Shown piece by piece: positions 3,353 to 37,098 of a stretch of 54,481 bases of DNA (position 1 is its first letter; every line of letters begins with the position of its first letter). Origin of the DNA: an uncultured Dehalococcoidaceae bacterium. Lineage in GTDB: Bacteria; Chloroflexota; Dehalococcoidia; Dehalococcoidales; RBG-16-60-22. The stretch is taken from positions 1 to 54,481 of the forward strand of contig CAYWZO010000005.1 of assembly GCA_964462865.1 (NCBI GenBank), given 5' to 3'. Under the pieces are notes generated by a model. It was not told the origin of the DNA. It worked only from the letters and a program-made list of their open reading frames with translations, and did not search any database. Position numbers and translations under genes: made by a program.

Positions 3353-3366
3353 ATTTACATTTCAAT

Positions 3367-14183: not shown

Positions 14184-14219
14184 AATTATCCCCGGATTAC
14201 ATTATCGGCGGGATAAGGC

Positions 14220-15563
14220 TTACCCCTCCGTATCACTGTCTTTTTCATCGAGTGAGCTGATTTTCGTCAGGCCGAGACTCTCGAAGAAACGGCTGAAATC
14301 TTCTCTCACGCGGGCCTCATTCCATTCCTTGGGGTCGCCTTCGCTGGCCTCGTAGGTAGCCAGCGGTATGCCCGCCGCGCGGATGTCCTGTATTCTCGTG
14401 TAAATCCCCTGGCAAAGGGCGGCACAGCGGCGCGCCAGGTGCATCATAATGCCGTCAATATGCCAGTCCTCGACCATACGCAGAAAGTGAAGGAGTCGCC
14501 ACTCCGGCGCATCGAAGTCCACGCCATCCTCTTCGGGCGGGTAACGTTGCTCCACCAGCGCCTGCAGGGCGTCCTCCCGGTTTTTCAGTTCAATCCCTCG
14601 CTCTTCCAGTGTCTGGCCCGGCATCCGGTGGCCATCGGCGGTATGGCGGAAAGTCCCGAAGGCCATCATGAATTCGCCCTGGTTGAAGGCGGCGCCGTAC
14701 TCTTCTGGCCACCGCAGCAGGTCCGGCCGGTACAGGGGGTGCAGGCCTTCGTGGGCCAAACGCTTTTTCTCGAAAGGCGCCCCGGATATTTTGTCTTTCA
14801 CGCGCTGCTGAATCTCGTGGTAGAGACTTTCCATGTATTCCGCCGTCCCCCGGCTGTAGGCGTAGGTGACGAGGGGCAGGCGCAATGACATGGCCTGCCG
14901 GTAGCTCATCGGCGCGGGAATAGCCTTCATCAGCTCGCAGATTTTAGCCCACAACACCCGGGAGCGGATATCATATTTGGTAGCCTCGATGAAACGTTCG
15001 TCGTCAAACTTGAGCTTGGTGCGTTTTTCAATCCACTCGATAACGTAGGAGAGCTGGGAAAGGAGATAATTACGGGTGTTGGCGGTATTTTTGGGCGGCG
15101 CCTCGATGACGAGCATGGGCAGGCCCAGTAAATCGGCGCATATCTGCCCTCCCTTATACTGCGCGTGGCAGCCCTGGGGCTGGAAAACAAAATCGGGCAT
15201 CATCTGCTTGCCTGATGAACCCCCGAACGAGGTCCCGGCGTACACCTGCCCCAGATGCGCCGCGATGGCCCCGCAGACCGGGGTCAAACCGCTGCCTTCC
15301 GCCAGGTTAACGAACTTTACCAGTCCTTCCGACCCGGCTCCCTCCCGTGCGATTCGTGTGAAATCCGTACCGGGTGAAGGATTGCCGAAATTACCGAAAC
15401 CGGCCAGCAGGGGAAGATATCCCCAGGCGAAACCGGTGACGCAGAGCCCGCCCTTGGTCTGGGCTTCAAAGGACAGCTTGTAACGCTCCCTCCGGAGCTC
15501 TTTCATCCGCATCCATACTTCGTCAGAAAAGGCCCTTGTCTCAAAATCCGGCTTTGTTTCCAT
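14220..15563 (-). CDS. 2-hydroxyacyl-CoA dehydratase family subunit, divergent BzdO-like
   Basis: 447 aa; PVCG, QGCH, WHIDGIMMHLARRC, YEASEGDP; lies between the N-like and P-like genes. Confidence 0.78.
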   Translation of the reverse strand: METKPDFETRAFSDEVWMRMKELRRERYKLSFEAQTKGGLCVTGFAWGYLPLLAGFGNFGNPSPGTDFTRIAREGAGSEGLVKFVNLAEGSGLTPVCGAIAAHLGQVYAGTSFGGSSGKQMMPDFVFQPQGCHAQYKGGQICADLLGLPMLVIEAPPKNTANTRNYLLSQLSYVIEWIEKRTKLKFDDERFIEATKYDIRSRVLWAKICELMKAIPAPMSYRQAMSLRLPLVTYAYSRGTAEYMESLYHEIQQRVKDKISGAPFEKKRLAHEGLHPLYRPDLLRWPEEYGAAFNQGEFMMAFGTFRHTADGHRMPGQTLEERGIELKNREDALQALVEQRYPPEEDGVDFDAPEWRLLHFLRMVEDWHIDGIMMHLARRCAALCQGIYTRIQDIRAAGIPLATYEASEGDPKEWNEARVREDFSRFFESLGLTKISSLDEKDSDTEG

Positions 15564-15607
15564 ATCATTACTTCCTTTGCTAACAGGTGATTAGCCTGGC
15601 TGTTATT

Positions 15608-16732
15608 TCATATGGCCGTGAGCATTTCCAGGAAAGCCTCGATGCGGGTACGGAATTGGCCCACGGGCACGGTGTAGTCCAGTTCGAGCTTGAGCATGGG
15701 GACGCCCTTTTCCTTGAAAAAAGATTCTACAGCCGGGTAGTCCAGGCCGTGGGCGTCGCATTGCCGCTGCATGGTGTAGATGGCCCCCTGGACTTTATAA
15801 TCGTTGATGAGCCTGGCATAGTGGTTGAGCCGCCACCTTTCTGGCAAATCATGCAAAGGGCATGGTGGCTTGTCAACCAGCCGGGCGGCGATGGCAGCCA
15901 GCCGGTCATCTTCCGGGACAACCTCCGTCTGGTAATAGCGGTTGCCCGTGCAGTAATCGTCGATGACCACCCGGCCCCCCAGGGAATCGATGAACCGGAT
16001 AAGTTCGATGTTATTGTTCACGCTGCCGAGGAGCATGAGCCTGGGGCCTTGCCGGGCTACACCGGCACGTTGCGGGATTTCTTTTATAGCTGCTTCGAGG
16101 AGGTGGTTGTGCTCTTCCCGGTCCATGAGCATCCCGGCCAGGGTTATTTCGGCCACCTCCGCCTCGGTCAGCGGCGGGGTGTCAGCTTGCATCGTGGCGG
16201 TAATTTTAGCCACCAGCTGGCGGTTCAGATTGTAGATATTTATTGCCCTGTCAATAGCCTCGCCGGTGATTGGCTTCCCCGTCCATTTCTCCAGCGATGC
16301 CTGGCACTCTACCAGCTCCCGGGCAAGGTACTCCTTGGCATACGGATTCTGCAGGCACATCGGCGAATGAATTTCATAACTATAGGCCACGGGTACGTGA
16401 CGCTGCCAGTCCAGGAATACCTCCCGGGCGTGCGGGCAGCATTGTGAGAAAATGATACCATCAATGTAGTCGTAACGACCCTGGAGGGCCTGCGCGAAGC
16501 AATCGCGGGCAAAGGAGCAAAAGGCCGCCTGAAAGATGTACGGCCGGGTGATATTCTCCGGTTCGTTGGTCCCCAGGAGGCGGACCGGAAGGATACCGGC
16601 AGCATAAATCAGTTCTTCCGGCAGGTTCGAGCACAGCGCCCCGATGACTCTGCCGCCCGTTTTCGATTTCCAGTCTCGCGCGGACTGGTGGGGATTCGTC
16701 ACGATAGCGTGAAATTCATCGAAAATACTCAT
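15608..16732 (-). CDS. 2-hydroxyacyl-CoA dehydratase family subunit, BzdN-like
   Basis: WKSKTGGRVIG, PEELIYAAGILPVR, FCSFARD, DDYCTGNRY, QRQCDAHGLD. Confidence 0.87.
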   Translation of the reverse strand: MSIFDEFHAIVTNPHQSARDWKSKTGGRVIGALCSNLPEELIYAAGILPVRLLGTNEPENITRPYIFQAAFCSFARDCFAQALQGRYDYIDGIIFSQCCPHAREVFLDWQRHVPVAYSYEIHSPMCLQNPYAKEYLARELVECQASLEKWTGKPITGEAIDRAINIYNLNRQLVAKITATMQADTPPLTEAEVAEITLAGMLMDREEHNHLLEAAIKEIPQRAGVARQGPRLMLLGSVNNNIELIRFIDSLGGRVVIDDYCTGNRYYQTEVVPEDDRLAAIAARLVDKPPCPLHDLPERWRLNHYARLINDYKVQGAIYTMQRQCDAHGLDYPAVESFFKEKGVPMLKLELDYTVPVGQFRTRIEAFLEMLTAI

Positions 16733-22792: not shown

Positions 22793-24013
22793 TCAGATTA
22801 CTTTTTCTTCTTTAAACTGCGTAATATCATCCCAACTGTACCCCCCAAGCTCCTGAAGCACCTCCTCGGTATGCTGGCCGAACTCCGGCGCCGGGCTCTG
22901 GACACCCGCCGGTGTAGTGTGGAATTTTACCGGACATCCTACCGTTTTTATTCTTCCGAGTGAAGGCTGCTCGTATTCCACGACGTATTTGTTATCCAGA
23001 ATCTGCGGGTCATCGGCCACATCCAGTCCCTCGTTGATGGGAGAAAACATGATGCGATGATATTTGCCCACGATTTCCACCCACTCGTCGCGCGGTTTGG
23101 TAGCAAAGACTTGGTCTAAAATATCTATCAATTCCCGGCAGTTTTTCGCCCTGGCCGGGGTGCTTTCGAACTTCGGGTCCTTTTCAAGATTTTCGATGCC
23201 GGCGGCCTTACAAAAATCCGGCCATACCCTGTCCGTGGCCAGGATGCAGAAACTGATCCATTTGCCGTCCTTACATTTGTAATGATTGGCGAGGGGATTG
23301 CTGACTGATTTCCTGTCTTCCCGAAGGAGTTCCTTCTTGTAAAAAAAGGTGTTGGTCAGTCTGACATGCTGGAGCGCGACCATGGAGCCGGTGATGGAAA
23401 TATCGATTTCCTGGCCGATTCCCAGCCTTTCCCGGGCCAGCAGCGCCGCTAATATGCCGTCAACGGCGATAATTGAAGTCATATGGTCGGCCATGGCCCC
23501 GCCCACTGCCGCCGGTTCCCCGAGGAGCGCCGTCTGGTTGGTCATGAAGCCGGAACGTGCCTGGCCCACATAGTCATTGCCGCGGCGCCAGTTGTCCGGC
23601 CCGTCAGGGCCAAGGCTGGATATATTGGCGTAAATTATCTTGGGATTGTATTGGGAAATCGTCTTGTAATCTAAATTCGCACGGTCACGCACGGACTGCC
23701 TGAAGTTCTGCAGAAAAACATCGCACTTTTGCACGAGCCGGTATATTATTTCCTTGCCTTTAGGTGTGGTGACGTCTACGGTGATGCACTTTTTATTACG
23801 GTTCACGCCGGTATACATGAATTCTCTCTCGGCGGTGGTGCGTCCCGTCGCCATCCCTTCCAGCCGCGTGATGCCGCGGCTGGGGTCGCCGACGACGGGT
23901 TGTTCGATCTTGATTACTTCCGCGCCCATATCTCCGAGCATCATGGTTGCCCCCGGGCCCGCCAGCCATATTGCCCACTCTAAAATACGGATACCATCTA
24001 AAGGTTTAGCCAT
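22793..24013 (-). CDS. Family III (CaiB/BaiF) CoA-transferase
   Basis: LGDMGAEVIKIE, NRNKKCIT, DVFLQNFR, MADH, APEFGQHT. Confidence 0.93.
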   Translation of the reverse strand: MAKPLDGIRILEWAIWLAGPGATMMLGDMGAEVIKIEQPVVGDPSRGITRLEGMATGRTTAEREFMYTGVNRNKKCITVDVTTPKGKEIIYRLVQKCDVFLQNFRQSVRDRANLDYKTISQYNPKIIYANISSLGPDGPDNWRRGNDYVGQARSGFMTNQTALLGEPAAVGGAMADHMTSIIAVDGILAALLARERLGIGQEIDISITGSMVALQHVRLTNTFFYKKELLREDRKSVSNPLANHYKCKDGKWISFCILATDRVWPDFCKAAGIENLEKDPKFESTPARAKNCRELIDILDQVFATKPRDEWVEIVGKYHRIMFSPINEGLDVADDPQILDNKYVVEYEQPSLGRIKTVGCPVKFHTTPAGVQSPAPEFGQHTEEVLQELGGYSWDDITQFKEEKVI

Positions 24014-24140
24014 TGTATCATGCCTTTCTAAAAATGATTTTTTACTGTGGTATTTGTCTTGTTATTTCTCTTGTTCACGGATGTCCCGCTTTTAAAGGTT
24101 GAATCCGTCAATGAACAAGAAGTGAGAAATGAAATTCACT

Positions 24141-24171
24141 ACATCATATACTATATAGAATATGATGTCAA
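24141..24171 (-). promoter_or_regulatory. Near-consensus sigma70 promoter overlapped by a 28-bp palindromic operator
   Basis: Minus strand TTGACA (24171-24166)-17 nt-TATGAT (24148-24143); palindrome ACATCATATACTATATAGAATATGATGT (24141-24168) is 26/28 self-complementary. Confidence 0.8.
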
Positions 24172-24355
24172 TATCGATATTAAATGTTTTTTCATTTTCG
24201 GTGAAGGAAATGGGATACATTAAAGATATAAAGTAAGGAATACTTGAGAATTTGTTGCTGTTTTATAAGAAAGCTGGTTAGTGGCTTAAACGCGCCCGGC
24301 GCTTTGAATCAGATAGTTGCCAGTAAATATCACCGGTCCGGTGTCAGAACTGCGC

Positions 24356-26749
24356 TCAAGCCGTTTGGTATTCTGTCCGGGCGATGATTTCATCCTGTAT
24401 TACTTTACCCAGCCCCGTAAAGTAGGCGCTGTAACCGGCCACCCTGACAATCAGGTCGCGGTGTTTTTCTGGATGCTGCTGGGCGTCCAGAAGCGTCACC
24501 CTGTCAACGATGTTGAATTGGACATGCTTGCCGCCAAGTTCAAAATAGGTACTGATTAAAATGGCGAGCTTACGCCTGTCCTCTTCCGTCCCGAGTGCGG
24601 ATGTATGGAATTTCATGTTCAGCAGTGTTGCCTGGAGGGTACTCTGGTCAATTTTCGAGGCGCTTTTCATGACCGCCGTCGGGCCGCGTACGTCTTGGCC
24701 CTGTACCGGCGACATACCGCCGTCGGCCAGGAACGTACCGGAATATCTGCCGTCGGGGGTGGCGCCTGTTTGGGCTCCCCCGGGCCACTGCGCCGAGATG
24801 GAAATAGCCGAGGGTTTATGTGTCCCGCCTACTATCGTGGGGAAATTTGCGGTAATTTCTGAAAAATACCTGTAAAGCTCGGCAGCCAGAGAGTCCGCGT
24901 AATCATCGTCGTTTCCGTACTTGGGTGCTGCCATAAAGGCTTTCCTCATCGCCTCGTAGCCTGCCCAGTTGGCGTGCAGAGCGGCCTGTAGTTCTCTCAT
25001 GGTGTATTTCCGCTCTTCGAAGATGAGCTTTTTGACCGCCGCGAGGGAATCGACCACATTGACCATGCCCACGGTGTTGAGCACCGCGCCATTCTCGAAG
25101 GGATAGGTACGGTCGAGAAGGCTCCGTCCCACCCTGACAGGGTCATCCAGCAGAGCGGTACGCACCGGGTCGGGGAAGATATCGGCATGAGCGCTCATCC
25201 AGATGTTATTATACTCGGCGTTCAATTGCAGGAAGTAAGACAGCTGTTGTTTAAAGGCGTTCACGAGTTCGTCGAAAGATTGAAAGGTCTCCGAATCTCC
25301 CGTTTTCGGGCCGAGTTGCCTTCCTGTTTTCGGGTCCACGCCGTTGTTCAGGGTGATATCCAGCACCATCGGCGTGATGAACATGGCAAAGGCGCTGATG
25401 CGGGATTTCCCCGGGATACTGGCGTCAAGGCAGCCGCCCAGGGCGTAATTCCTTGCGTCTTCGAGCGGGACTCCCTGACGGCACAGATAACTGATATACG
25501 AATTATCACCAACAAAAGCAGGCAGGCCGATTCCGGTCTGAAGTACTTCGATACTTTTAAGTAACAGCGCCTCGGGTGTTTTTTCGTGCACTCTCACGGT
25601 GATGGTGTGATGGGGCGTGGGACAGCGCCGCGCCGCTTCCAGGATAAGGTAGGAAAGCTCATTGGTGGCGTCCTGCCCGTCACGCGTCTGACCGCCGATA
25701 ACACAGTTATGCCATTTGGCTTTGCCGGCATCTTTCTGTCGGTTCTCCTTGCCCGATATTCTGTTCAACTCCATGTCCTTGATGCGGAGGCACTGCAGCA
25801 GCTCAAGTGCTTCCTCATCGGAGATAAGTCCCTGCTCTATATCCCTTTTGTAATAGGGATAGAGATATTGGTCCATTCTGCCCATCCCCGCCACCGTGGA
25901 AGGGTTAATCATCAGGAAGGCAAACCAGAAAGACTGGATGGCTTCACGGAAAGTGCGCGCCGGATTGGCCGGCACCTGCCGGCACGTGGCGGCGATTATC
26001 TCCAGTTCTTTTTTACGTGCCGGGTCCTTTTCCCTTATCGCCGTCTGTGCCGCGAGTATGGCGAACCTGCTGGCGAAACGGACGACGGCGTTGAGTGAAA
26101 TAATCAGGGCATTAAGAAAATGTCCCTTTTCTACCGAGCCGGTATTCAGGAACGTGAGTTTTTGAAGTTCCTTCTCTGCCTCATTGATGATATCGAGCAG
26201 GCCGTGCTGGAGCACTTTCTCGTAATCTTCAACGTTATTGTAAAAGCCCGGGCCGAGTCCCATGCCGCTCTCGGCGTAGCCGCCGCCGCTCCCTTCCGCT
26301 TTGCTTTTCCAGGGCGCCAGCACCATGCCCGTTTGCATGAAGGGCCAGAGCCTTTCATCATCAAAAGAATGGCCTATCCTGGCAACGAGGCTCTTTCCTC
26401 TCCAGTATTCGTTGATAGCTTCAGCCTCTCTTAAATCGCGGTCGTTGATTAACCACCCCTCCTCTTTCAGGGCGTTTATTTCATCCTCCGGCCAGGGCCC
26501 GTAATTAAACTCCATCTCGACACCCAGGTAGGTGCTGGCCCCGTTGCCGACGATGAGTTCGCCCTCCCTGATGAAAATGGTGATGTTGTCCAGGGAATGA
26601 GCCAGGGCTTTAGCTCTTCTAAGAATCTCCGGTTCACCCTCGGTCTGCCGGAACACCTCCGTCATCAGCCGCGCCTTTTCAATGCAGACGGGATATTTTT
26701 CGACCCGGAGCCCTGCCTTCAGTTTTTCAATCCGTGTTGTGCTCATCAT
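24356..26749 (-). CDS. Glycyl radical enzyme (PFL-like family), unknown reaction
   Basis: C-terminal RVAGYS glycyl motif, HVQFNI, TPDGR, single-Cys loop GGCLD; 797 aa. Confidence 0.93.
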   Translation of the reverse strand: MMSTTRIEKLKAGLRVEKYPVCIEKARLMTEVFRQTEGEPEILRRAKALAHSLDNITIFIREGELIVGNGASTYLGVEMEFNYGPWPEDEINALKEEGWLINDRDLREAEAINEYWRGKSLVARIGHSFDDERLWPFMQTGMVLAPWKSKAEGSGGGYAESGMGLGPGFYNNVEDYEKVLQHGLLDIINEAEKELQKLTFLNTGSVEKGHFLNALIISLNAVVRFASRFAILAAQTAIREKDPARKKELEIIAATCRQVPANPARTFREAIQSFWFAFLMINPSTVAGMGRMDQYLYPYYKRDIEQGLISDEEALELLQCLRIKDMELNRISGKENRQKDAGKAKWHNCVIGGQTRDGQDATNELSYLILEAARRCPTPHHTITVRVHEKTPEALLLKSIEVLQTGIGLPAFVGDNSYISYLCRQGVPLEDARNYALGGCLDASIPGKSRISAFAMFITPMVLDITLNNGVDPKTGRQLGPKTGDSETFQSFDELVNAFKQQLSYFLQLNAEYNNIWMSAHADIFPDPVRTALLDDPVRVGRSLLDRTYPFENGAVLNTVGMVNVVDSLAAVKKLIFEERKYTMRELQAALHANWAGYEAMRKAFMAAPKYGNDDDYADSLAAELYRYFSEITANFPTIVGGTHKPSAISISAQWPGGAQTGATPDGRYSGTFLADGGMSPVQGQDVRGPTAVMKSASKIDQSTLQATLLNMKFHTSALGTEEDRRKLAILISTYFELGGKHVQFNIVDRVTLLDAQQHPEKHRDLIVRVAGYSAYFTGLGKVIQDEIIARTEYQTA

Positions 26750-27069: not shown

Positions 27070-27100
27070 CTACTACAACTTTACCTTGTGAGGAGTGAAA

Positions 27101-28285
27101 ATGAAGATATCCAAAATAGAATGCTTCCCGCTTAGCTTGGTTTACCCACCGCCCAGAAAGCGTACCGGCAAAGTCGTCCTGATAAAAATACATACCGACG
27201 AGGGTATCGTGGGGGTGGCCGAATGCGGAGATTTAATCAATACTTCGTACGACCAGGACATCGTGATGCTCATAATCAAAAGCTGGGAGCCTGTCCTGAT
27301 CGGGGCCAATCCCTTCGATAAAGAGCTTATCCTGGCTAAAATCAACCATCTTATCCATAACGTTACCGGCGGTCTGTCTTTCCCCAACGTGGTGGCACTG
27401 ATCGACTTCGCTTTATGGGACCTGGTGGGAAAGGCGTTGAACCAGCCCATTTACCAGCTCCTGGGGGGAAAAGCCTGTGACAAGCTGGCTGTCGATTACG
27501 TGATTGGCGACGTCGCCAACCTGTCACCCGCAGAGATAGCTAAAAAGGTAGAAAGGATTCTGGACAACGGCATCCGGACCGTTTGTCTCAAGGTGGGAGG
27601 TTTCTGGGGCAGCGATTTCGAACGCGATATCCTGAATGTGAAGACCGTTAGAAAAGCCATCGGCGACCGCGAAGACGTACACCTGTGCATCGATGCCAAC
27701 GGGGCCATGGATTACACCAAATCGCTGGAGCTAATCCGCCGCCTGGAGGACTGTAACCTGTACAAGTTCGAGCAGCCCACGTTTTCGTGGGACGTGGATG
27801 GCCTGGCGCGTTTACGCAAGAGTACCAAAGTCGCTATCTGCCCGCATGAGAGCAGTACCACGGTTTCTGCCCTGATGGAGGTCATTAAAAAAGACGCCGG
27901 CGACTTCGCAGGCACCAAGCTTGCCTGGGCGGGCGGTATCTCCGAGGGGGTGAAGTGGGGAGCCGTCGCCAAAGCGGCTGACCTAGGTGTGTATTGCGGC
28001 TCTATGAACGGGCCTTATGAGGCGGTGTTCCAGGCACAATGGCTGGCTTCAGACGCCTGGTACGGTAAACTTGCCCATGCCAATTTCTTTCCTATGATGT
28101 TCCATGATACCTTTGATACTACCCGCGACCTACAACGGGAAGATATCGTCGTCAGACCTATGGCCTACAAGGATGGCTACTTCTATCCGCCTGATGGGCC
28201 AGGCGTAGGTCTGGAGCTGAATGAAAAGGCCCTCCCTAATTTCATTACGCCGGGAATGAGCCCCATCACGATTGGGGGGAAATAG
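27101..28285 (+). CDS. Enolase superfamily protein (mandelate racemase/muconate lactonizing enzyme type)
   Basis: TDEGIVGVAE, IDFALWDLVGK, DANG, FEQP, PDGPGVG; AGGAG RBS before ATG 27101. Confidence 0.9.
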   Translation: MKISKIECFPLSLVYPPPRKRTGKVVLIKIHTDEGIVGVAECGDLINTSYDQDIVMLIIKSWEPVLIGANPFDKELILAKINHLIHNVTGGLSFPNVVALIDFALWDLVGKALNQPIYQLLGGKACDKLAVDYVIGDVANLSPAEIAKKVERILDNGIRTVCLKVGGFWGSDFERDILNVKTVRKAIGDREDVHLCIDANGAMDYTKSLELIRRLEDCNLYKFEQPTFSWDVDGLARLRKSTKVAICPHESSTTVSALMEVIKKDAGDFAGTKLAWAGGISEGVKWGAVAKAADLGVYCGSMNGPYEAVFQAQWLASDAWYGKLAHANFFPMMFHDTFDTTRDLQREDIVVRPMAYKDGYFYPPDGPGVGLELNEKALPNFITPGMSPITIGGK

Positions 28286-28442
28286 CACACCTTCGACTGT
28301 ACAGGACCTTATTCAACTAAAAAGAATAAGCGACTACAAAACGCCGGGAGGTGTCAGGTTCCGGCGCCAGAGGCTATTCTGACTGTGACTTAAGAAGTGG
28401 TATCATTATTGGGGGCAGGTCAGAAAAAGGAAGGCTATTAAT

Positions 28443-31118
28443 ATGACAAACGATTTATTTGAAGACCGTCATGAGGCCGGTCATCACCAGAAAAAAGCGC
28501 AGGCAGGATTGGACAAAACTGTATATAAATCACTTGGCCTTATGGGCTTGATGGGTGGTGGAGGACCTTGCGCCGTGGATGTCAGGAACGGAAAGATACT
28601 GAGAGTCAGGCCATTACATTTCGACTCTAAATATACCCGCGAGCATATCGAAGTCTTTAAGTTTAAAAGGAACGGCAAGGTCTTCGAGCCGTTGCTGAAA
28701 TCTTTGCCTTACCCGATTGCGCTGGCCTACAAGAAACGGTCTTATTCCCCTAACCGTATCAAATACCCGCTCCAGCGCATTGACTGGGACCCGGCCGGAG
28801 ACAGGCATGCCGAGAACCGTGGTATAAGCAAATATAAAAGAATATCCTGGGATGAAGCTGCCTCCATCATCGCCGGGGAAATCAGGAGGATTCAAAGGCA
28901 GTACGGTACGGCGGCCATCCTGGCCCAGGCGGACGGCCATGCAGAGTGCAAGAGTGTCCATGCCCCTCACGGTTGTCAAACACTCCTCCTCAGTAAAATC
29001 GGGGAATATACGCAGCAGGTAAGGAACCCGGATAGCTGGGAAGGCTGGTACTGGGGCTCGATGCACGTATGGGGCGATGGTGACGTCGGTTTGATGAACC
29101 CGAGTTTGAACACGGCCAAAGACTGCACCGAACACTCGGAAATGCTGCTTTTTTGGGGATGTGACCCGGAAACGACGCCCGGCGGGGCCGGTTCACAGTC
29201 AGCCTCCGCTTTATGCTTTTTCTGGTCGCAGGTGGGCATCAAACAGGTTTATATCTGCCCCGATTTAAACTACGGTGCCGCCGTCCATGCCGATAAATGG
29301 ATACCGGTGCTGCCCAATACGGACGCGGCCATGCAATTGGCGATAATCTACACGTGGCTTACCGAGGGCACCTATGACAAAGAATACATAAAAACTCACA
29401 CGGTGGGGCTGGAAAAAGTAGCCGATTATGTCCTGGGCAGGGAAGACGGTATACCCAAAACTCCGGCCTGGGCATCGGCGAAGTGTGGCGTCCCGGAGTG
29501 GACGATAAAAGCCCTGGCCAGGGAGTTTGCCTCTAAAACAACTTCGATTATGCATGTGCTCGGCGGCTCATTTATTAGAGGTCCCTATTCCACCGAGCCT
29601 GCCCGGCTGGAATCCATCTTGCTGGGCATGCAGGGGTTGGGGAAACCGGGCGTCCACCAGTGCGCTAACGTCGGCACTCTGCCCAGGACTTCCTGGATGT
29701 CGCGAACTTCCCTGCATATACATAATCTGGCGTCTCAAGCCGCCCGGGACGCTGCTAATAACCGTATTCTCCGTCCGCACCTGGCTACCCGCAACGTCTT
29801 CACCAAGCAGCAACTCCCCAAGACGCTCATTCAAGAAGCCATCCTCAATCCTCCCGTCAGTTTTTGGGGCAACGGTGCCATCGATTCTCCGCGCGAAGAC
29901 CAATTTAAAAAGTACACTTATCCCCTCCGCAGTGAAGAGGGAGGGTCGGAAATACACATGATATGGACTGACACCCCTTGCCGCACCACCTGCTGGAATA
30001 ACGGCAACAGGACTATCGAAGCCCTGAGAAGTCCCAAGATTGAATGTATCGTGGCCCAGCACCCCTGGCTGGAAAACGACTGCCTGCTGGCGGATATTAT
30101 CCTGCCCACCAACACTACCATGGAAGTAGAAGATATTATGGCTAACACCCGGGGTAATATACCCTGCGCGGCAGTCACTTACCAGGAAAAGGCGATTGAA
30201 CCTATCGGAGAATCCAAGAGCGACTATGAAGCAGTCCTGGAAGTAGCCAAGAAGCTGGATCTATATGATAAAGTGACAGGTGGTAAGACTGCGGAAGAGT
30301 GGATTAAGGATGTTTTTGATACCAATATGGCCAATTTTGTAAGCTGGGAAGAACTAAGAGAAAAGGGGTATTATCCTTTCCCGGCGGCCAGGGACTGGGA
30401 AGATGACCCGCCTGGCCTGAGAAAATTTTATGAAGACCCTGTAAAAAATCCCCTGTCCACGCCAAGCGGAAAACTGGAGTTTTACTCCGCGAGAATAGCA
30501 CAGGTTTTTCCCGATGACCCTGAAAGACCACCGGTTCCCAGATGGATTGAAAAGGGGATTACTCATGATGAGAGGCTTTCCAGTGAAAGAGCCAGGATGT
30601 TTCCTTTGCTCCTGATGTCCAATCATGGTAGGTGGAGGGTGCATGCTCAATGTGATGATATATCTTGGACCAGGGAAGCTCCCACCTGCAAAGTCAAAGG
30701 TTGGGATGGCTACATGTATGAGCCACTCTGGATTAACCCGAAGGACGCGGAAACAAGAAGCATTAAGACTGGAGATATTGTTAAAATCTACAATGAAAGA
30801 GGCACGGTGCTTGGTGGAGCCTATGTAACTGAGAGACTGATGCCAGGGGTTGCCTATATTGACCATGGGGCGAGGTGTGATTGGATTATTCCGGGAAAGC
30901 TGGACCGAGGAGGCGCTATTAACTTGATTTCTCCATGCGGAATTATTTCCCAGCATGCTGGTGGAGAAGCTACCAGCGCCTACCTTGTGGAGGTGGAAAA
31001 AGTAAGCATGCAGCAAATGGATGAGTGGAAGAGGCAATATACCGATGCATTTGAAAGACAGTATAACCCGGCGTCCGGGTTGCAGTTTAACGCCTGGGTC
31101 GAAGGAGGAATAGACTAA
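28443..31118 (+). CDS. Mo/W-bisPGD oxidoreductase, pyrogallol transhydroxylase large subunit (AthL)-like clade
   Basis: NPDSWEGW Ser-ligand motif, PNTDAA, ADIILP, TPSGKLEFYS, HAQ; no N-terminal FeS Cys motif; no Tat signal. Confidence 0.88.
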   Translation: MTNDLFEDRHEAGHHQKKAQAGLDKTVYKSLGLMGLMGGGGPCAVDVRNGKILRVRPLHFDSKYTREHIEVFKFKRNGKVFEPLLKSLPYPIALAYKKRSYSPNRIKYPLQRIDWDPAGDRHAENRGISKYKRISWDEAASIIAGEIRRIQRQYGTAAILAQADGHAECKSVHAPHGCQTLLLSKIGEYTQQVRNPDSWEGWYWGSMHVWGDGDVGLMNPSLNTAKDCTEHSEMLLFWGCDPETTPGGAGSQSASALCFFWSQVGIKQVYICPDLNYGAAVHADKWIPVLPNTDAAMQLAIIYTWLTEGTYDKEYIKTHTVGLEKVADYVLGREDGIPKTPAWASAKCGVPEWTIKALAREFASKTTSIMHVLGGSFIRGPYSTEPARLESILLGMQGLGKPGVHQCANVGTLPRTSWMSRTSLHIHNLASQAARDAANNRILRPHLATRNVFTKQQLPKTLIQEAILNPPVSFWGNGAIDSPREDQFKKYTYPLRSEEGGSEIHMIWTDTPCRTTCWNNGNRTIEALRSPKIECIVAQHPWLENDCLLADIILPTNTTMEVEDIMANTRGNIPCAAVTYQEKAIEPIGESKSDYEAVLEVAKKLDLYDKVTGGKTAEEWIKDVFDTNMANFVSWEELREKGYYPFPAARDWEDDPPGLRKFYEDPVKNPLSTPSGKLEFYSARIAQVFPDDPERPPVPRWIEKGITHDERLSSERARMFPLLLMSNHGRWRVHAQCDDISWTREAPTCKVKGWDGYMYEPLWINPKDAETRSIKTGDIVKIYNERGTVLGGAYVTERLMPGVAYIDHGARCDWIIPGKLDRGGAINLISPCGIISQHAGGEATSAYLVEVEKVSMQQMDEWKRQYTDAFERQYNPASGLQFNAWVEGGID

Positions 31119-31128
31119 TTTTAATAAG

Positions 31129-32223
31129 GTGGACGATATGTCGCAACGCAAGGCAGCCATGACTGAAGGGCAACGCTTGGCCGCTGTATTAAACCGGGAA
31201 AAGCCAGACAGGGTCCCTAACTGGCCTTTTTTTGATTTAACCGGTTTTTCTGCCGTATACCACCAGCGTCCTGTTGCGGCTGCGTACCTTGACCCCCGGG
31301 AGTCGCTGGATATGCAGCGCGCCGTCTGCCGGGACTTCCAATGGATATGCAGCCCCTTCTTCGCACTCTTTGGTGCTAACGAGTTCGGCGGTGAGGTGAA
31401 ATTACCGGATAGCCAGTATGCGCAGGCCCCGACCATTACCCGTTTCCCTGTGGAAAAGGAAGAAGACGTCCGGAAGCTAAAGATACCGGATATCAAGAAT
31501 TCGCCCAGCGTCGCCAGGGAGATTGAGTTCTATCAAATAGCGTCTAAAGAGCGCTTTGACAACGAGCCGTTCCGGGTTTATCTACCAAGCATCGAACCTT
31601 TTGGCTTTGTTGGCAAGTTATGCCGGCTGGAACTGCTAGCCAGGTGGATGCTCCGGAAACCGGAGATCGTCCTGGAGTTATTGCAGTTCGCTGATAGCTA
31701 TCTAGCAGAGATGATAAAACACTGGCGCGATATCTTCGGCACGGAAGACGTTATCGCCAGGAGCGGCGGTGTAATATCGAGTAACCAGCTAATCTCCCCG
31801 CGACTGTTCGAGCGGTTCGTGTTTCCTTTCCTGAAGGAGAGCCACCGGAAAGTGCTGGAAATGGGCTATCGGCACATCTACTGCCATATCTGTGGTGACC
31901 ATAACATGAATATGAAGTATTGGGCGCAGGTCCCTATGGGGGACCCCGGAATAGTAAGTATCGGCCATGAGGTGGAACTGGAAACGGCAGCGCAATATTT
32001 CCCCGACGACATCATCCTGGGCAACCTGGAGCCATCAATCCTGCAGACGGGCACAGCGGATGAGGTCTATGAAGCCACCAGGAAGGTGGTTGAAAAAGGA
32101 AAAAGGTTGTCTGGTGGCTATATCTTCTCATTGGGTTGCCAGTTTCCTCCGAGGGCTAGCCTGGATAACGCCCGCGCCATGAACCAGGCCATTGAGGATT
32201 ACGGGTGGTACGATAAGGTCTGA
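31129..32223 (+). CDS. UroD-fold methyltransferase (MtaA/CmuA-like)
   Basis: PDRVP, ISPRLFERF, CHICGD, ILGNLEP, LGCQ; start may be ATG 31138. Confidence 0.85.
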   Translation: MDDMSQRKAAMTEGQRLAAVLNREKPDRVPNWPFFDLTGFSAVYHQRPVAAAYLDPRESLDMQRAVCRDFQWICSPFFALFGANEFGGEVKLPDSQYAQAPTITRFPVEKEEDVRKLKIPDIKNSPSVAREIEFYQIASKERFDNEPFRVYLPSIEPFGFVGKLCRLELLARWMLRKPEIVLELLQFADSYLAEMIKHWRDIFGTEDVIARSGGVISSNQLISPRLFERFVFPFLKESHRKVLEMGYRHIYCHICGDHNMNMKYWAQVPMGDPGIVSIGHEVELETAAQYFPDDIILGNLEPSILQTGTADEVYEATRKVVEKGKRLSGGYIFSLGCQFPPRASLDNARAMNQAIEDYGWYDKV

Positions 32224-32236
32224 TTAATGGATAAAG

Positions 32237-32908
32237 GTGGTAAAGAGAATGGCTAGCGAAGCAAGGAAACAAGAACTGATAAAGTCAATTTACCACGCGG
32301 TCATTGACATGGATGAAGCGAAAACACGCAAGCTCTGCCTGGAGGCTCTTGATGAGGGGATTGACGCTTACCATACCGTAACTCATGGGCTAACAGCGGC
32401 GATGGACAGGGTGGGTGTGCTCTACGCCGAAAGAACATATTTTGTCCCGGAGCTTTTGCTGTGCTCGGATGCGCTTTACGCAGGACTGGAGGTGTTACGC
32501 CCGTACCTCAAGATAAACGAACTGGCCACCAGGAGGCAGATTATCATCGGCACCGTTGAAGGCGATATCCATGATATCGGCAAGAACCTGGTGAAGATAA
32601 TGTTCGAGGCCGCCGGCTGGGAGGTGCGCGACTTGGGGAGGGATGTCGCTTTACCAAGATTCCTCGAGGAATATAAAAAGCAACGCGCCGATATCATCGC
32701 CATTTCTGCCCTGATGACGACGAGCATGCTGGCCATGCCCAGAGTAATCAAGATGGTCAGGGCGGAGTACCCGGATGTAGCCATCATGGTTGGCGGCGCT
32801 CCCCTGACCAGGGAGATAGCTACAAGTTATGGAGCCGACGGCTACGCCGAGAATGCCGGGACAGCCGTGCCCGAAGCGCAAACGATGCTGGCAAGGCTGG
32901 GTAAATGA
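32237..32908 (+). CDS. Corrinoid (B12-binding) protein
   Basis: GTVEGDIHDIGKNLV (DxHxxG), SALMTT, MVGGAP, GADGY; N-terminal cap domain. Confidence 0.93.
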   Translation: MVKRMASEARKQELIKSIYHAVIDMDEAKTRKLCLEALDEGIDAYHTVTHGLTAAMDRVGVLYAERTYFVPELLLCSDALYAGLEVLRPYLKINELATRRQIIIGTVEGDIHDIGKNLVKIMFEAAGWEVRDLGRDVALPRFLEEYKKQRADIIAISALMTTSMLAMPRVIKMVRAEYPDVAIMVGGAPLTREIATSYGADGYAENAGTAVPEAQTMLARLGK

Positions 32909-33963
32909 AACGGGATAAAATGACACCGAAGGAAAGGTTGACAGCCTTCAGGAAGGGAGAAGCGACAGACCGCGTACCGTTTTTGTCTTTCACCCTCGGT
33001 TTTTGCGCCAGGAATGTCGGCTATCCGGTATCGGCCATCTACGCCGACCCGGAGAAAAGCTTTCGCGCGCAGCTGCGGACCAGGGAGCAGTACGGCTGTG
33101 ACAGCGAGCCTTTTTTTGGTTACGCCTCTTACGGGGGCTGGGAGTTCGGTGGAGAAATTGAGCTACCCGACGGGGAATACGAACAGGCACCATCCCACGG
33201 ACGGTTCGCCGTTAATGACGCGACGGATGTAGAGAAGCTTCAAAGGCCCGACGTGGCAACGGCGGGCATGCTGCCACTGGCGATGCAATTCTCACGGATA
33301 CAGGAAAAAAACGGCATCGGGCCCTCGGTAGTCGTCGGCGGGCCTTTAACTATCTCGGCAAATATCTGCCCGGTAGCCACACTATGCCGATGGATGGTAA
33401 AAAAGCCAGAGCTGGTGCAAAGACTCCTTCGGCTGGCTACCGATCATATCCTGGATATCGCACGCTACTGGATAAAGAGCTTCGGCAGGGGCCGGGTAGG
33501 AATGCAGATATGGGAGCCGGTGGCAACAAATGACCTCATTTCCCCCAAGCAATTCGAAAATCTGGTATTACCTTATCAGGTTGAACTACATGAAAAGCTA
33601 TTGAAAATGGGCATCCTCTATATTCTCTGCCATATCTGCGGGGAACAGATATTAAACCTTCCCGCCTGGGCAAGCGTACCGATGGATAATGGCATCGTCA
33701 GCGTCGGTCAAGAAATCGATATAGATACGGCGATAAAATACTTTGGGGACAGGTGTGCTATTGCCGGTAATATTGAGCCGGCGTTACTTCAGACCGGGAC
33801 GCCCGATGAAATCTGCGAACTCTGCCGGAGGGCCATCGAAAAGGGAAAGCGTGCCCCGCACGGCTATGCCCTGATGCCAGGGTGCGAAGTGCCGGTGAAT
33901 ACCCCGCCCGATAACCTTTACGCGATGAAAAAGGCTGTTAGCGAATTTGGCTGGTATGAATAA
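32905..33963 (+). CDS. UroD-fold methyltransferase (MtaA/CmuA-like)
   Basis: MTPKERL...DRVP, ISPKQFE, CHICGE, IAGNIEP, PGCEV; start overlaps the corrinoid gene stop. Confidence 0.87.
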   Translation: MKRDKMTPKERLTAFRKGEATDRVPFLSFTLGFCARNVGYPVSAIYADPEKSFRAQLRTREQYGCDSEPFFGYASYGGWEFGGEIELPDGEYEQAPSHGRFAVNDATDVEKLQRPDVATAGMLPLAMQFSRIQEKNGIGPSVVVGGPLTISANICPVATLCRWMVKKPELVQRLLRLATDHILDIARYWIKSFGRGRVGMQIWEPVATNDLISPKQFENLVLPYQVELHEKLLKMGILYILCHICGEQILNLPAWASVPMDNGIVSVGQEIDIDTAIKYFGDRCAIAGNIEPALLQTGTPDEICELCRRAIEKGKRAPHGYALMPGCEVPVNTPPDNLYAMKKAVSEFGWYE

Positions 33964-34086: not shown

Positions 34087-34647
34087 TCATGATAATTTTT
34101 CTACCCGTTTCAAGATAATGAGCGCAGGTCGGGTCGGCCCGGGATATCGCTCTGATATCTTCCCCTTTGCCGTTTCAATGGGTGCGTTGATATCACCAAA
34201 CCTAAGGGCCCCGGTCGGGCAGTGGACAGCGCAAAAAGGTTCCGAACCGAGTCCGGTACAATAATCGCATTTCTGCATCTTACCATCCTGCCCGAATTGT
34301 GGCATACCGTAAGGGCAGGCGGTGAAGCACTCTTTACAGCCGTTGCATTTTTCATCGTCGACCAGCACCAGTCCGTCTTCAGATCGTTTATAGATGGCTC
34401 CGGTAGGACAGATACTCATACACGCCGGCTCGGCACAATGCATGCAGGATATCGACAAAAAAGTCCTTTTTACCTCGGGAAACTCACCTTGCCATGCTTC
34501 CTGGGTCTTTCGCCAGTAGAGTCCGGCTTCAATGTTACGCGCACTTTTGCAGGCTGCCTCACAGGTACGACAGCGGACACACCTGCTCTGGTCATAAATA
34601 AAACCTAGTTGGACCGGCATATCTTCAATCATGTTGGAATTATTCAT
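34087..34647 (-). CDS. 4Fe-4S dicluster electron-transfer subunit (DmsB-like)
   Basis: CVRCRTC, CMHCAEPAC, CNGCKECFTACP, KCDYC...CAVHCP; start overlaps the Mo-enzyme stop. Confidence 0.92.
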   Translation of the reverse strand: MNNSNMIEDMPVQLGFIYDQSRCVRCRTCEAACKSARNIEAGLYWRKTQEAWQGEFPEVKRTFLSISCMHCAEPACMSICPTGAIYKRSEDGLVLVDDEKCNGCKECFTACPYGMPQFGQDGKMQKCDYCTGLGSEPFCAVHCPTGALRFGDINAPIETAKGKISERYPGPTRPALIILKRVEKLS

Positions 34648-36821
34648 GCGGATAGTTTCATGACCTCAACAAGAGTCTGTTTTGGCATCGCCGTAACGAC
34701 CGGGTCAAATGCCTTTTCAGGGTCAGTGGTGTACAGCAAGTTCGTATTAGCGCCTCCATCGAGTAGATCATAACCCGACAATCCGAGTTCATCACAACCC
34801 TGCCACCAGCCGTGAAGACCCATAACAACTTTAGGGTTTATACCGGGGAATAGTACTGCCTTGGCCTTAATCCGGCCATGGGGAGACTCTACGGTAGTCC
34901 AATCGCCGTTTTCAATACCACGTTCTTTAGCCGTATCGGGATGTATGTATATCCAGGGGTCCGGCTCCAACTCACGCAGCAGGGGGATATTACGCAACCA
35001 GCCGTGATTATATACATCAGATGTGTGAGTATCGAAAAAAACGAGGGGATATTTTGTCAGGAGTTCGGGCGTGCTGGATGGTCCTTCCGGAGGGGCTGTC
35101 CATTCAGGTAGTGGATTAAACCCGTTTTCCTCAAAACCTGTATTAAATATAGCGACTTTACCCTGCGGGAGATAAGGGGCTTTAGAAAGCCGGGGACTGG
35201 GAGTGGCGAATGTCTTTTCATATTTCTCAAAGACCATCGGTCCCGGTTCGTAGATGATTCCGGTGGGGTATTTTCTCAATTCCTCCATTGTCATGCCGAA
35301 GTTTTCCAGCTGGTAATTCATGCACGCTATTATGTCGCCGTTCCAGAAGTCATCCCCGTAACCCATCTTTATGGCGAGGTCGAGCCAGAATTGAAAGTCA
35401 GATTTATAATTTCCCAGGGGCTCGATAACCTTATTTCTGGCCATTATCCAGTTCTTGGTAACCTCAAAGGGATGGTCGCATTCATACATACTGGTAACAG
35501 GAATGACAACGTCTGCCCATGGCATTGATGCGTTCTCCATAACGTCGATGACTACAAAGAAATCAAGTTTTTTCAGGGCTTCGATGACTCTCGGGGTCCC
35601 GCGGGTGATTACGGTGGGTTGAGTTCCAGGAGCGATGATTGTTTTCACAGGGTACGGCTTTTCGGTGAGGACACTGTCAAGACAACGGAAATAGGCGGAA
35701 GAGGTGCCTTCGGTGAATGGCTGGAAACAACTTGCTATCTCCGGGCCGACAAGATTGTCTACCCACTGTTGAGTATATTTTTCCCGGATGTGGACAGGTT
35801 TTAGTACTGGCATGGTTCCCGGAACGGGAATAACGTTTCCGCCAGGCCTATCGAGATTGCCGGTGATGGCGATCAACGTCGCGATGGCACGTACAGCATT
35901 GTTTGAATTTACCGTCTGATCAAAGGCATTGCCAACCCGGATACAGGCTGATTTTGCACTGCCGTACATCCGGCTTACTTCACGTATCCGGGCTGCCGGA
36001 ATTCCGGTTATGGGAGCGGCCCATTCCGGGGTATACTTCTGGACATGGCTTTTAAGTTGATCAAAACCATAACACCACTTGGTTACAAAATTTTTATCAT
36101 ATAGTTCCTCGGTAATAATGACGTTTAACATCGCCAGGGCCAAAGCCGCATCCGTTCCCGGTATAACCGGAATCCAGACATCCGCCTTGGCGGCGTCTGG
36201 CTGTAGCGCGGGTTTGATTACGATCAATTTGGCACCCTGCTCCCGGGCATTCAAAATTCGGTAGAAATCTCCTCGTGGAGTTCCGGAGTAAGCGGGGTTT
36301 GCTCCCCAAATGATGATCAAGTCAGTATTATCATAATCTTCTGTGAGCCGTGGCGCGCCCAGGGTATAGGCAAATCCGAAGGCGCGCTGGATCGCGCAGA
36401 TACCGCTATGGCCATAGTTTGGACTTCCATGTACCATGAGGAACCGGTAAAGATAATCGCTGTAGGTTCGCCTCTGGGGGGAAAGAATTGCCAGAGTTTT
36501 CGGTCCATATATTTCCTTCTGTTCGAGAAGCTTCCCAGAAATGATATCGATAGCTTCGTCCCAATCAATTCTCTTGAATTTTCCTTTCCCTTTTTCACCT
36601 GCCCTCTTTAATGGGTACCTCAATCGCTGTGGAGAATATAACCATTGGGCTGATGCAAATGCCTTGGCGCACAGTTTCCCTCGATTGATGGGAGATTCCT
36701 TCATTCCTTCGATTCTAACGAGTCTTCCATCCTTAACATAACAATTAATGCCACACCCCGCACTGGGACCGCATAGCGAACAAAATGTCCGTATTAATTG
36801 TTCTTTAGAATTTGATTTCAT
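34644..36821 (-). CDS. Mo/W-bisPGD oxidoreductase with N-terminal 4Fe-4S, probably Cys-ligated
   Basis: CSLC...GC...LCAK cluster motif, GSPNYGHSGIC, WGANP, PGTDAA, ITGNLDRPGG; no Tat signal. Confidence 0.9.
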   Translation of the reverse strand: MKSNSKEQLIRTFCSLCGPSAGCGINCYVKDGRLVRIEGMKESPINRGKLCAKAFASAQWLYSPQRLRYPLKRAGEKGKGKFKRIDWDEAIDIISGKLLEQKEIYGPKTLAILSPQRRTYSDYLYRFLMVHGSPNYGHSGICAIQRAFGFAYTLGAPRLTEDYDNTDLIIIWGANPAYSGTPRGDFYRILNAREQGAKLIVIKPALQPDAAKADVWIPVIPGTDAALALAMLNVIITEELYDKNFVTKWCYGFDQLKSHVQKYTPEWAAPITGIPAARIREVSRMYGSAKSACIRVGNAFDQTVNSNNAVRAIATLIAITGNLDRPGGNVIPVPGTMPVLKPVHIREKYTQQWVDNLVGPEIASCFQPFTEGTSSAYFRCLDSVLTEKPYPVKTIIAPGTQPTVITRGTPRVIEALKKLDFFVVIDVMENASMPWADVVIPVTSMYECDHPFEVTKNWIMARNKVIEPLGNYKSDFQFWLDLAIKMGYGDDFWNGDIIACMNYQLENFGMTMEELRKYPTGIIYEPGPMVFEKYEKTFATPSPRLSKAPYLPQGKVAIFNTGFEENGFNPLPEWTAPPEGPSSTPELLTKYPLVFFDTHTSDVYNHGWLRNIPLLRELEPDPWIYIHPDTAKERGIENGDWTTVESPHGRIKAKAVLFPGINPKVVMGLHGWWQGCDELGLSGYDLLDGGANTNLLYTTDPEKAFDPVVTAMPKQTLVEVMKLSA

Positions 36822-37016
36822 TACTATCTCTTAGTGAGTAATCATTATCAATTTTATCATTTATTCCGTTATTATACGAAATCAAAGTTACTTGCGGTCG
36901 TTCATAAATAAGATTGTTGTTCAAGGAACCGAGGGCAAGATCTGCTATAAGCCGCCGGTGCCGCCGAAATGGCAAGAAAACGATGAGTTTTCAGTTCTGC
37001 CTATTGAACCCCCGAG

Positions 37017-37098
37017 TGGGGAAGGGGGGACTCGAACCCCCACGCATTGCTGCACTGGATCCTAAGTCCAGCCCGTCTGCCAGTTCCGGCACTCCCCC
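37017..37098 (-). tRNA. tRNA-Leu (TAG)
   Basis: Reverse complement GGGGGAGTGCCGGAACTGGCAGACGGGCTGGACTTAGGATCCAGTGCAGCAATGCGTGGGGGTTCGAGTCCCCCCTTCCCCA; long variable arm; CCA not encoded. Confidence 0.95.

Follow-up and report, generated by a model that had tools for sequence, protein, structure and literature searches.

An AthL-superfamily molybdoenzyme gene next to a corrinoid methyltransferase cassette in a Dehalococcoidaceae bacterium: a lineage-specific juxtaposition of two widespread gene sets

The transhydroxylase AthL/BthL of Pelobacter acidigallici and the corrinoid-dependent methyltransferase systems are the closest described relatives of a four-gene unit located at positions 28443-33963 of contig CAYWZO010000005.1 (assembly GCA_964462865.1) from an uncultured Dehalococcoidaceae bacterium, in which a molybdenum (Mo) enzyme gene is followed by two methyltransferase genes (MT1 and MT2) and, between them, the gene of a corrinoid protein (CP). 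The whole stretch of 54,481 nucleotides (nt) that was analysed is referred to below as the window. AthL is a cytoplasmic large subunit with neither an Fe-S domain nor a twin-arginine (Tat) signal, and BthL is a small subunit with three 4Fe-4S clusters and an immunoglobulin (Ig)-like domain; the gallate decarboxylase-transhydroxylase-phloroglucinol portion of the pathway has been described (PMC10470551). On the methyl-transfer side, the methyltransferases I (MT I) of characterised aryl O-demethylases (MtvB, OdmB, VdmB, MtoB and the related CdmB) form another UroD branch than the one met here, and their methyltransferases II (MT II) are pterin-binding or MtrH-like (PMC13222342, PMC8630106). The mlp gene clusters combine several MtaA-like proteins, homologues of soluble coenzyme M methyltransferases such as MtaA, MtbA and MtsA, with a corrinoid protein, contain no tetrahydrofolate (H4folate) methyltransferase and often occur with HGD-D 'double-cubane' proteins (PMC10418091).

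Open reading frame (ORF) listing and profile searches showed that the four genes are all co-directional:

28443-31118, plus strand: Mo enzyme, 891 aa, with the Pfam domains Molybdopterin and Molydop_binding and a sub-threshold AhtL-like_1st
31138-32223 (alternative GTG start at 31129), plus strand: MT1, a protein of the URO-D (uroporphyrinogen decarboxylase) fold, 361 aa, recognised by profile searches
32249-32908 (alternative GTG start at 32237), plus strand: CP, the corrinoid (B12) carrier, 219 aa, composed of a B12-binding_2 and a B12-binding domain
32905-33963, plus strand: MT2, also of the URO-D fold, 352 aa, recognised by profile searches

A sequence-only reading of this DNA had named these four genes, had described them as closely packed and apparently co-transcribed, and had noted that the Mo enzyme lacks a Tat signal and a small Fe-S subunit. 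The identities proved right at the superfamily level, and the packing was confirmed. If the earliest possible GTG starts are taken, the gaps between the four genes are 10, 13 and -4 nt; with the ATG starts behind AAGGTGG Shine-Dalgarno sequences, which were also chosen by the Joint Genome Institute (JGI) gene calls on the near-identical contig L163, they are 19, 25 and -4 nt, the start codon of MT2 overlapping the stop codon of CP (ATGA). Contig L163, an independent JGI contig, covers the 3' end of the Mo gene, MT1, CP and MT2 with 99.5% identity over 4,032 nt; because the same junctions are present in it, the four-gene arrangement is real and not an assembly artefact. No terminator was detected between the four genes in a promoter/terminator scan. 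Co-transcription is likely, since the gaps do not exceed 25 nt, two of the genes overlap by 4 nt and no intergenic terminator is predicted. The claim about the small subunit was likewise borne out, no BthL-like gene being present anywhere in the window; an Fe-S subunit gene does lie 123 nt past MT2 (34087-34647), on the opposite strand, and belongs to a second Mo enzyme.

Conservation of this arrangement was analysed in 162 loci that carry Mo-enzyme homologues of 52-80% identity (80 from species-representative genomes, 80 from metagenomes and 2 found via the closest proteins). The family is large, with 5,382 proteins at E<=1e-10, and its top 120 members, 65-79% identical to the window enzyme, come mostly from metagenome-assembled genomes of Dehalococcoidia/Chloroflexota, Desulfobacterota and Actinomycetota. 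An MT-CP-MT cassette followed the Mo gene in none of the 162 loci. Searches by tblastn with MT1, CP and MT2 gave matches in five loci, none of them with the cassette after the Mo gene, and profile searches found any URO-D-superfamily or corrinoid-protein gene in eight (about 5%). The sequence-only reading had held that a linkage unique to this genome would speak against its proposal of a new system, and this is essentially what the synteny search returned. The position after the Mo gene is usually held by BthL: of the 147 family copies that have at least 900 nt of downstream sequence, 101 are immediately followed by a BthL-like gene whose product has Fer4_11 and a carboxypeptidase-regulatory-like domain, and in the window it is the cassette that sits in this slot. 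Among the nearest homologues, the gene of P0002 (79%) has a WYL regulator behind it and is divergent from a Mo-BthL pair, after that of P0003 (79%) come Fur, rubredoxin and further genes of oxidative stress, and that of P0001 (78%) was read on two contigs, with a BthL-like Fe-S gene starting 4 nt after it on one and no relevant gene on the other; the contigs of L083 (80%) and P0004 (74%) end before the flanks become readable. A further locus, L031 (JAABTS010000016.1), has a gene content unlike that of the window and two Mo-BthL pairs. Within the capped sample of contexts, the pairing was seen only in this species (the window and L163); it is a lineage-specific juxtaposition of two separately widespread, uncharacterised gene sets and not a conserved new system.

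In a search of the PDB, the best solved relative of the Mo enzyme was AthL (4v4c; aligned end to end, 413 bits over residues 39-854), followed by the reductases of dimethyl sulfoxide (DMSO) and of trimethylamine N-oxide (TMAO) at 202-233 bits, TMAO reductase being the best of these with 233. The AhtL-like_1st domain scored 25.7 bits, just below its 27-bit cut-off, and the N-terminus contains neither a twin-arginine motif nor a Cys-rich 4Fe-4S motif. AthL residues 12-867 were rebuilt from the printed 4v4c alignment and aligned with 194 family members. In this family alignment the window enzyme was 35.7% identical to AthL. His144, Trp176 and the Mo ligand Ser175 are invariant in all 194 sequences, and Asp174 is present in 193 of them, including the window enzyme. 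In contrast, Tyr152, Arg153, Trp354, Tyr404 and Tyr560, which are reportedly residues of the AthL pocket (Messerschmidt et al. 2004) and whose types agree with the 4v4c sequence, are replaced in the window enzyme by Ala, Pro, Gly, Ser and a gap; only a group of about 22 sequences, 47-60% identical to AthL, retains them. The window enzyme has an uninterrupted reading frame and preserves the catalytic residues.

Judged by these features, the Mo enzyme is a cytoplasmic molybdo(tungsto)enzyme of the bis-MGD (bis-molybdopterin guanine dinucleotide) type that belongs to a large sister clade, 'B', within the AthL superfamily and is an orphan large subunit with no adjoining BthL. It probably has a Ser-ligated Mo with an Asp/His proton relay, that is, an AthL-like core chemistry; its residues indicate that pyrogallol/tetrahydroxybenzene is not its substrate and that clade B has a different substrate pocket. 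The label 'AthL-like' given by the sequence-only reading consequently stands for the superfamily, whereas the kinship is looser than it implied, given 35.7% identity and the missing pyrogallol/co-substrate pocket residues. Membership of the S-/N-oxide reductase family (DorA/TorA/BisC) was considered and rejected: TIGR00509 (bisC) gave 344 bits against a cut-off of 1017, and the TorA and DmsA models remained far below theirs. The curated cut-offs examined backed none of the names that source annotations give to the sister clade (L001-L162), namely 'TMAO reductase (cytochrome c)', 'S/N-oxide reductase-like' and 'anaerobic selenocysteine-containing dehydrogenase'.

Two further members of the AthL superfamily are encoded at the end of the window:

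49381-51972, plus strand: AthL-superfamily paralogue of clade B, 39% identical to AthL
52039-54481, plus strand: true AthL-clade paralogue, cut by the window end, 48.9% identical to AthL

The latter keeps His145, Trp147, Tyr152, Tyr404 and Tyr560, and its pocket is largely preserved. The same tandem order, clade B followed by the AthL clade, was also observed in L070 and L153. Two minus-strand ORFs in this region (51976-53460 and 53467-54411) had no Pfam match and are probably shadow ORFs. The window thus contains three AthL-superfamily genes and, in total, four bis-MGD enzyme genes.

MT1 is a MtaA/MtbA/MtsA-like protein that matches TIGR01463 and PRK06252 below their cut-offs; its search against solved structures returned only CdmB, with an uninformative 26 bits. 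MT2 matched Methanosarcina mazei MtaA (4ay7) with 70.6 bits and aligned zinc ligands. The two proteins, both of about 355 aa, are 38-40% identical to each other, and both align with the H-x-C and G-C zinc ligands of MtaA, the His-Cys-Cys motif reading 'CHICGD'...'SLGCQ' in MT1 and 'CHICGE'...'MPGCE' in MT2. Of 134 aligned sequences, of which 120 are MT1 homologues and 14 are URO-D proteins from the window and the fetched loci, 125 have this triad. Longer URO-D proteins found near Mo genes in L002, L077, L081, L156, L167 and L169 lack it, and in L002, L081, L156, L167 and L169 the zinc-site columns read F-E-x. CP carries the DxHxxG His-on motif as 'GDIHDIG', scores 167 bits with TIGR02370 and has 1y80 and the trimethylamine corrinoid protein 7xcn as its best solved relatives.

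The cassette shares with the aryl O-demethylases (MtvABC, OdmABD/VdmB, MtoABCD and the related CdmBCA) the logic of MT I, corrinoid protein and MT II, a UroD-superfamily MT I and the B12-binding_2 plus B12-binding architecture of CP. It differs from them in that their MT I has about 420-450 aa and no His-Cys-Cys triad; MT1 and MT2 scored only 26-35 bits with CdmB, and neither a pterin-binding (PF00809) nor an MtrH-like (PF02007) MT II was found among the window ORFs scanned. With the mlp clusters it shares two MtaA-like UroD proteins next to a corrinoid protein, the His-Cys-Cys zinc sites (as far as sequence alignment to MtaA goes), the lack of an H4folate methyltransferase and, in its relatives, the proximity of HGD-D/BcrAD genes. 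The cassette has more in common with mlp clusters than with classical O-demethylases because both methyltransferases have the His-Cys-Cys site and there is no pterin-type MT II. Unlike mlp clusters, neither its own cluster nor the rest of the window offered a candidate reductive activase of corrinoid enzymes (RACE/Ram) among the ORFs scanned against Pfam, and it is flanked by two bis-MGD enzymes, which are not described for mlp clusters; the term 'molybd' does not occur in the text of PMC10418091. A further contrast with mlp clusters lies in the host, which is not a Firmicute; the best hits pointed to a Desulfobacterota-like metagenome-assembled genome.

The second of these bis-MGD enzymes is encoded, with a partner, beyond the 3' end of the four-gene unit:

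34087-34647, minus strand: ferredoxin-like subunit, 186 aa, four-cluster DmsB/Fer4_11 type, convergent with MT2 across the 123-nt gap
34644-36821, minus strand: second bis-MGD enzyme (725 aa), cytoplasmic, lacking a Tat signal and carrying a 4Fe-4S domain at its N-terminus

These two genes overlap, and the same two-gene unit was found in L164, L167, L169 and L170. Comparison with the relatives of the cassette, drawn from 455 MT1 homologues (E<=1e-20), showed a pattern that is more robust than the pairing with the AthL-like enzyme. Contig L163 (MT1 99%), from the same species, has the arrangement of the window. In L164/L165 (MT1 86%, CP 83%, MT2 82%), a single strand of L164 carries the 3'-terminal part of the gene for a 78% orthologue of the 725-aa enzyme, the Fe-S subunit, MT1, CP and MT2, and window and L164 differ by an inversion between the 725-aa enzyme/ferredoxin unit and the cassette. 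The ferredoxin-subunit gene of L164 (773-1311) matches in two frames, which points to a frameshift or to faulty assembly of this Logan contig. The P0124 contig (MT1 79%) contains three HGD-D and two BcrAD genes followed by MT-MT-CP-MT, with no Mo enzyme, and in L166 a lone MT1-like gene (76%) and the gene of a 71% orthologue of the 725-aa enzyme point away from each other, an HGD-D gene lying farther along. The closest independent cassette relatives, with an MT1 of 77-87% identity, lack an AthL-like neighbour. Among the three independent cassette relatives an AthL-like neighbour occurs in none and the 725-aa enzyme in two. The His-Cys-Cys cassette recurs with the 725-aa enzyme and its ferredoxin, and with HGD-D/BcrAD genes; it is a mobile MtaA-like/corrinoid protein/MtaA-like set.

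Four orthologues of the 725-aa enzyme (76-88% identity; L167-L170) keep the ferredoxin partner wherever the sequence allows. A URO-D gene, of the longer kind without His-Cys-Cys, lies within about 5 kb in two of the four (L167 and L169); L168 is cut and L170 has no URO-D gene. The top solved relatives of the 725-aa enzyme are acetylene hydratase (266 bits) and PsrA (264 bits). With the acetylene hydratase/catechol dehydroxylase/Psr-Phs branch it shares the N-terminal 4Fe-4S domain and the small ferredoxin subunit. It differs in lacking a Tat signal and in reading CGINC where acetylene hydratase has CDINC, with Gly in place of the catalytic Asp of acetylene hydratase adjacent to the second cluster Cys. 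Catechol dehydroxylases are reportedly closest to acetylene hydratase (PMC7028382), and the 725-aa enzyme is likened to them only by that route; the characterised ones use Tat export and a membrane anchor. A 'PhsA-like' cluster beside AthL-like genes in 10 of the 162 loci was also considered as a set of orthologues of the 725-aa enzyme; its members are only 30-36% identical, and the association says little.

The commonest neighbours of AthL-family genes in the 162 loci were tripartite ATP-independent periplasmic (TRAP) transporters (about 18 loci), IclR regulators (12) and short-chain dehydrogenases/reductases (SDRs; 11), with class II aldolases, 'cyclase'-family proteins, Amidohydro_2, AOR and UbiD proteins also common. 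Phloroglucinol reductase is an SDR and dihydrophloroglucinol cyclohydrolase a cyclase-family enzyme (PMC10470551). Given such neighbours, the family as a whole appears to occur in polyphenol- or aromatic-acid-like contexts. Non-orthologous corrinoid methyltransferase sets recur sporadically beside AthL-family genes. In L156 (1775-11425, plus strand) a single strand carries a Pterin_bind MT II, a URO-D protein without His-Cys-Cys, a corrinoid protein, DUF1638, a major facilitator superfamily (MFS) gene, an AthL-like gene and a BthL-like gene; this is a canonical O-demethylase-type set paired with an AthL-family enzyme on an unrelated metagenome contig. In L106 an AthL-like gene is preceded, 185 nt upstream and in the same direction, by the gene of a His-Cys-Cys methyltransferase, and HGD-D/BcrAD genes follow. 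In L075 (19673-22466, minus strand), and also in L072, an MtaA-like methyltransferase with the His-Cys-Cys motif and 48% identity to MT1 is accompanied by an adjoining UbiD-family decarboxylase, FAD-linked oxidases and CCG-domain proteins, the AthL-like gene being about 9 kb away.

Elsewhere in the window, the following genes accompany the four-gene unit and its paralogues:

2705-5225, minus strand: MobB, MoeA and a MobA-like NTP transferase (bis-MGD cofactor maturation)
10621-16732, minus strand: MarR regulator, family III CoA-transferase, two BcrAD/BadFG ATPases and two HGD-D proteins
22793-26749, minus strand: glycyl radical enzyme (797 aa) and family III CoA-transferase
27095-28285: enolase-superfamily gene, just upstream of the Mo gene and divergent from the 22793-26749 unit

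The 10621-16732 set is reminiscent of a class I benzoyl-CoA reductase or of a 2-hydroxyacyl-CoA dehydratase system, and HGD-D/BcrAD genes such as these also flank the cassette relatives on the P0124 contig, L106 and L166. The cofactor genes at 2705-5225 fit the presence of four bis-MGD enzyme genes. For the glycyl radical enzyme, the nearest NCBIfam models were PFL2-3, sulfopropanediol dehydratase and CutC, all below their cut-offs, and no activating enzyme was seen nearby.

We favour, with a probability of roughly 45%, the reading that the unit is a lineage-specific operon serving the catabolism of methylated hydroxyaromatic acids, most likely methoxylated ones, because corrinoid methyltransferase sets recur beside AthL-family genes and because these genes stand in polyphenol-catabolic neighbourhoods. 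The AthL-type catalytic core, the pairings in L156, L106 and L075 and the remaining gene content of the window also support it. In this scheme MT1 would transfer the methyl group of the methylated substrate to the Co(I) of the corrinoid protein, the Ser-ligated Mo enzyme would relocate, add or remove a hydroxyl on the demethylated hydroxyaromatic product, and the 725-aa enzyme may perform a catechol-dehydroxylase-like reduction. The four-gene cluster would then be part of a catabolic island, to which the window adds two AthL paralogues, the benzoyl-CoA-reductase-like set, CoA-transferases and the cofactor genes. A comparable logic is found in the fermentation of trimethoxybenzoate and syringate (Holophaga) and in the demethylation and subsequent dehydroxylation of lignans, where demethylation exposes hydroxyls that are then moved or removed by a Mo enzyme. 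The window enzymes differ in not being orthologues of the characterised ones, and the steps of those pathways are not known to form one operon.

Several results weigh against this reading. The roughly 5% of AthL-family loci with a corrinoid methyltransferase component (8 of 162) may equal background. The sampling of contexts was capped and carries in part an ascertainment bias, L164 and L166 having been reached through MT1. There are no phloroglucinol-pathway genes near the window copy of the Mo enzyme, no Fe-S partner for a redox role of this enzyme in the window, and, as noted above, neither an MT II nor a RACE/Ram candidate among the ORFs scanned. The His-Cys-Cys zinc site has been linked to S-/Se-methyl transfer and is absent from characterised UroD-type O-demethylases (Kountz & Balskus 2023, PMC10418091). 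Finally, we infer the substrate and the reaction of the unit entirely from sequence. Of the coupled demethylation and oxygen-atom-transfer system put forward by the sequence-only reading, what survives is that the pairing is real and that L156, L106 and the polyphenol-type neighbours keep the idea alive; what does not is its conservation.

The zinc sites bring in the main rival, which the sequence-only reading had already offered as its methyl-sulfur alternative and which we do not favour: the cassette would be an mlp-type module for S-/Se-methyl transfer in a methyl-sulfur or methyl-selenium pathway. MT1 and MT2 would demethylate thioethers or thiols (for example dimethyl sulfide (DMS) and then methanethiol, methylmercaptopropionate (MMPA) or dimethylselenide) onto CP, or shuttle methyl groups between thiols, and the Mo enzymes would supply the substrate, the Ser-ligated one by reducing DMSO to DMS and the Psr-like one by a polysulfide- or selenium-type reduction. 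The triad in both methyltransferases and in 125 of the 134 aligned sequences lends it some support, as does a cassette layout that fits mlp clusters down to the HGD-D association (PMC10418091). The Mo enzyme has its best NCBIfam match in the bisC S/N-oxide reductase subfamily, and its relatives bear S/N-oxide reductase-like source annotations; yet that match is far short of its cut-off (344 of 1017 bits), AthL outscores the S-/N-oxide reductases by 413 to 233 bits, and the AthL residues Asp174, His144 and Trp176 are kept across the clade. For the 725-aa enzyme, Psr/Phs and acetylene hydratase give equally high scores. The neighbourhoods of the AthL family, however, are aromatic and not sulfur-related, the window copy has no electron-input subunit, and the scanned ORFs of the window include no RACE activase. 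We consider this pathway unlikely. It is somewhat less improbable, although still doubtful in our judgement, that the genes are adjacent without sharing a function, a rearrangement having put the cassette into the BthL slot or having inverted the 725-aa enzyme/ferredoxin unit. The Mo enzyme would then either be decaying or catalyse some unrelated reaction together with a BthL-like subunit whose gene lies elsewhere, possibly behind the truncated paralogue where the window ends, and the cassette would work with the 725-aa enzyme or alone. Such a history would agree with a pairing restricted to one species, with the BthL-like gene 4 nt downstream of the 78% relative, with a gene order in L164 that equals that of the window but for the inversion, and with AthL paralogues that are many and scattered, three of them in this window alone. 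Against it stand the intact frame and the conserved catalytic residues of the Mo enzyme, and the 19-nt gap, the good Shine-Dalgarno sequence and the lack of a terminator imply co-expression; the arrangement is moreover kept in two separately assembled samples, and in L156 and L106 other corrinoid methyltransferase sets have come to lie, through independent recruitment, next to AthL-family genes.

A broader proposal, which we regard as quite improbable, is that the His-Cys-Cys MtaA-like methyltransferases of sediment Desulfobacterota and Dehalococcoidia form an unrecognised demethylase cassette coupled to cytoplasmic bis-MGD enzymes. Encoded as one unit, it would demethylate aryl methyl(thio)ethers and then transhydroxylate or dehydroxylate them in a Mo-dependent step, or it would carry out a Mo enzyme-fed conversion of DMSO to DMS, methanethiol and sulfide in which the two methyltransferases strip both methyl groups.

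The four-gene arrangement itself is a species-level peculiarity, a local rearrangement of two widespread, uncharacterised gene sets with proposed functions, and its main value is as a pointer to two Mo enzyme families and to the methyltransferase/725-aa enzyme/HGD-D-BcrAD neighbourhood. These families, the AthL sister clade (wrongly labelled at present as TMAO/S-N-oxide reductase or as pyrogallol hydroxytransferase) and the acetylene-hydratase/Psr-like family of the 725-aa enzyme, are very large, highly conserved, cytoplasmic and uncharacterised. If the coupling is functional, it would provide a first substrate class for both of them and a genetic handle on the use of methylated phenolics (lignin- or tannin-derived carbon), or of methylated S/Se compounds, by uncultivated sulfate-reducer-like bacteria in anoxic sediments.

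Two elements upstream of the Mo gene were considered as the 5' boundary of the unit:

28343-28366, plus strand: GC-rich hairpin downstream of the enolase-superfamily gene, a possible 5' boundary
28379-28406, plus strand: weak promoter-like, sigma-70-like site CTGACT-16-TATCAT with an extended TG

Together they weakly suggest that the unit begins at 28343-28406. The assignment is weak because promoter-like sites, like terminator-like ones, are not enriched over shuffled sequence in the four-gene region. Compared with shuffled sequences, the leader at 28280-28445, which takes in 157 nt 5' of the Mo gene, shows better folding (z=-2.66), and the intergenic region between MT2 and the ferredoxin gene does not. 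Rfam scans of the whole window at the gathering threshold and of 26.7-37.7 kb at E<=1 gave tRNAs only, and hence neither a molybdenum cofactor (Moco) nor a cobalamin riboswitch.

The remaining features recorded in the window were:

37-199, minus strand: tRNA-Glu and tRNA-Gln, at the window start
9075-10496, plus strand: serpin, 473 aa (Pfam Serpin, 398 bits), beside a leucyl aminopeptidase
37016-37098, minus strand: tRNA-Leu(TAG), immediately upstream of the 725-aa enzyme operon

The GC content over about 24-38 kb is 0.49-0.53, somewhat below that of most of the window, and the GC skew is positive over the methyltransferase genes; together with tRNA-Leu, the GC drop and this skew may mark an island boundary.

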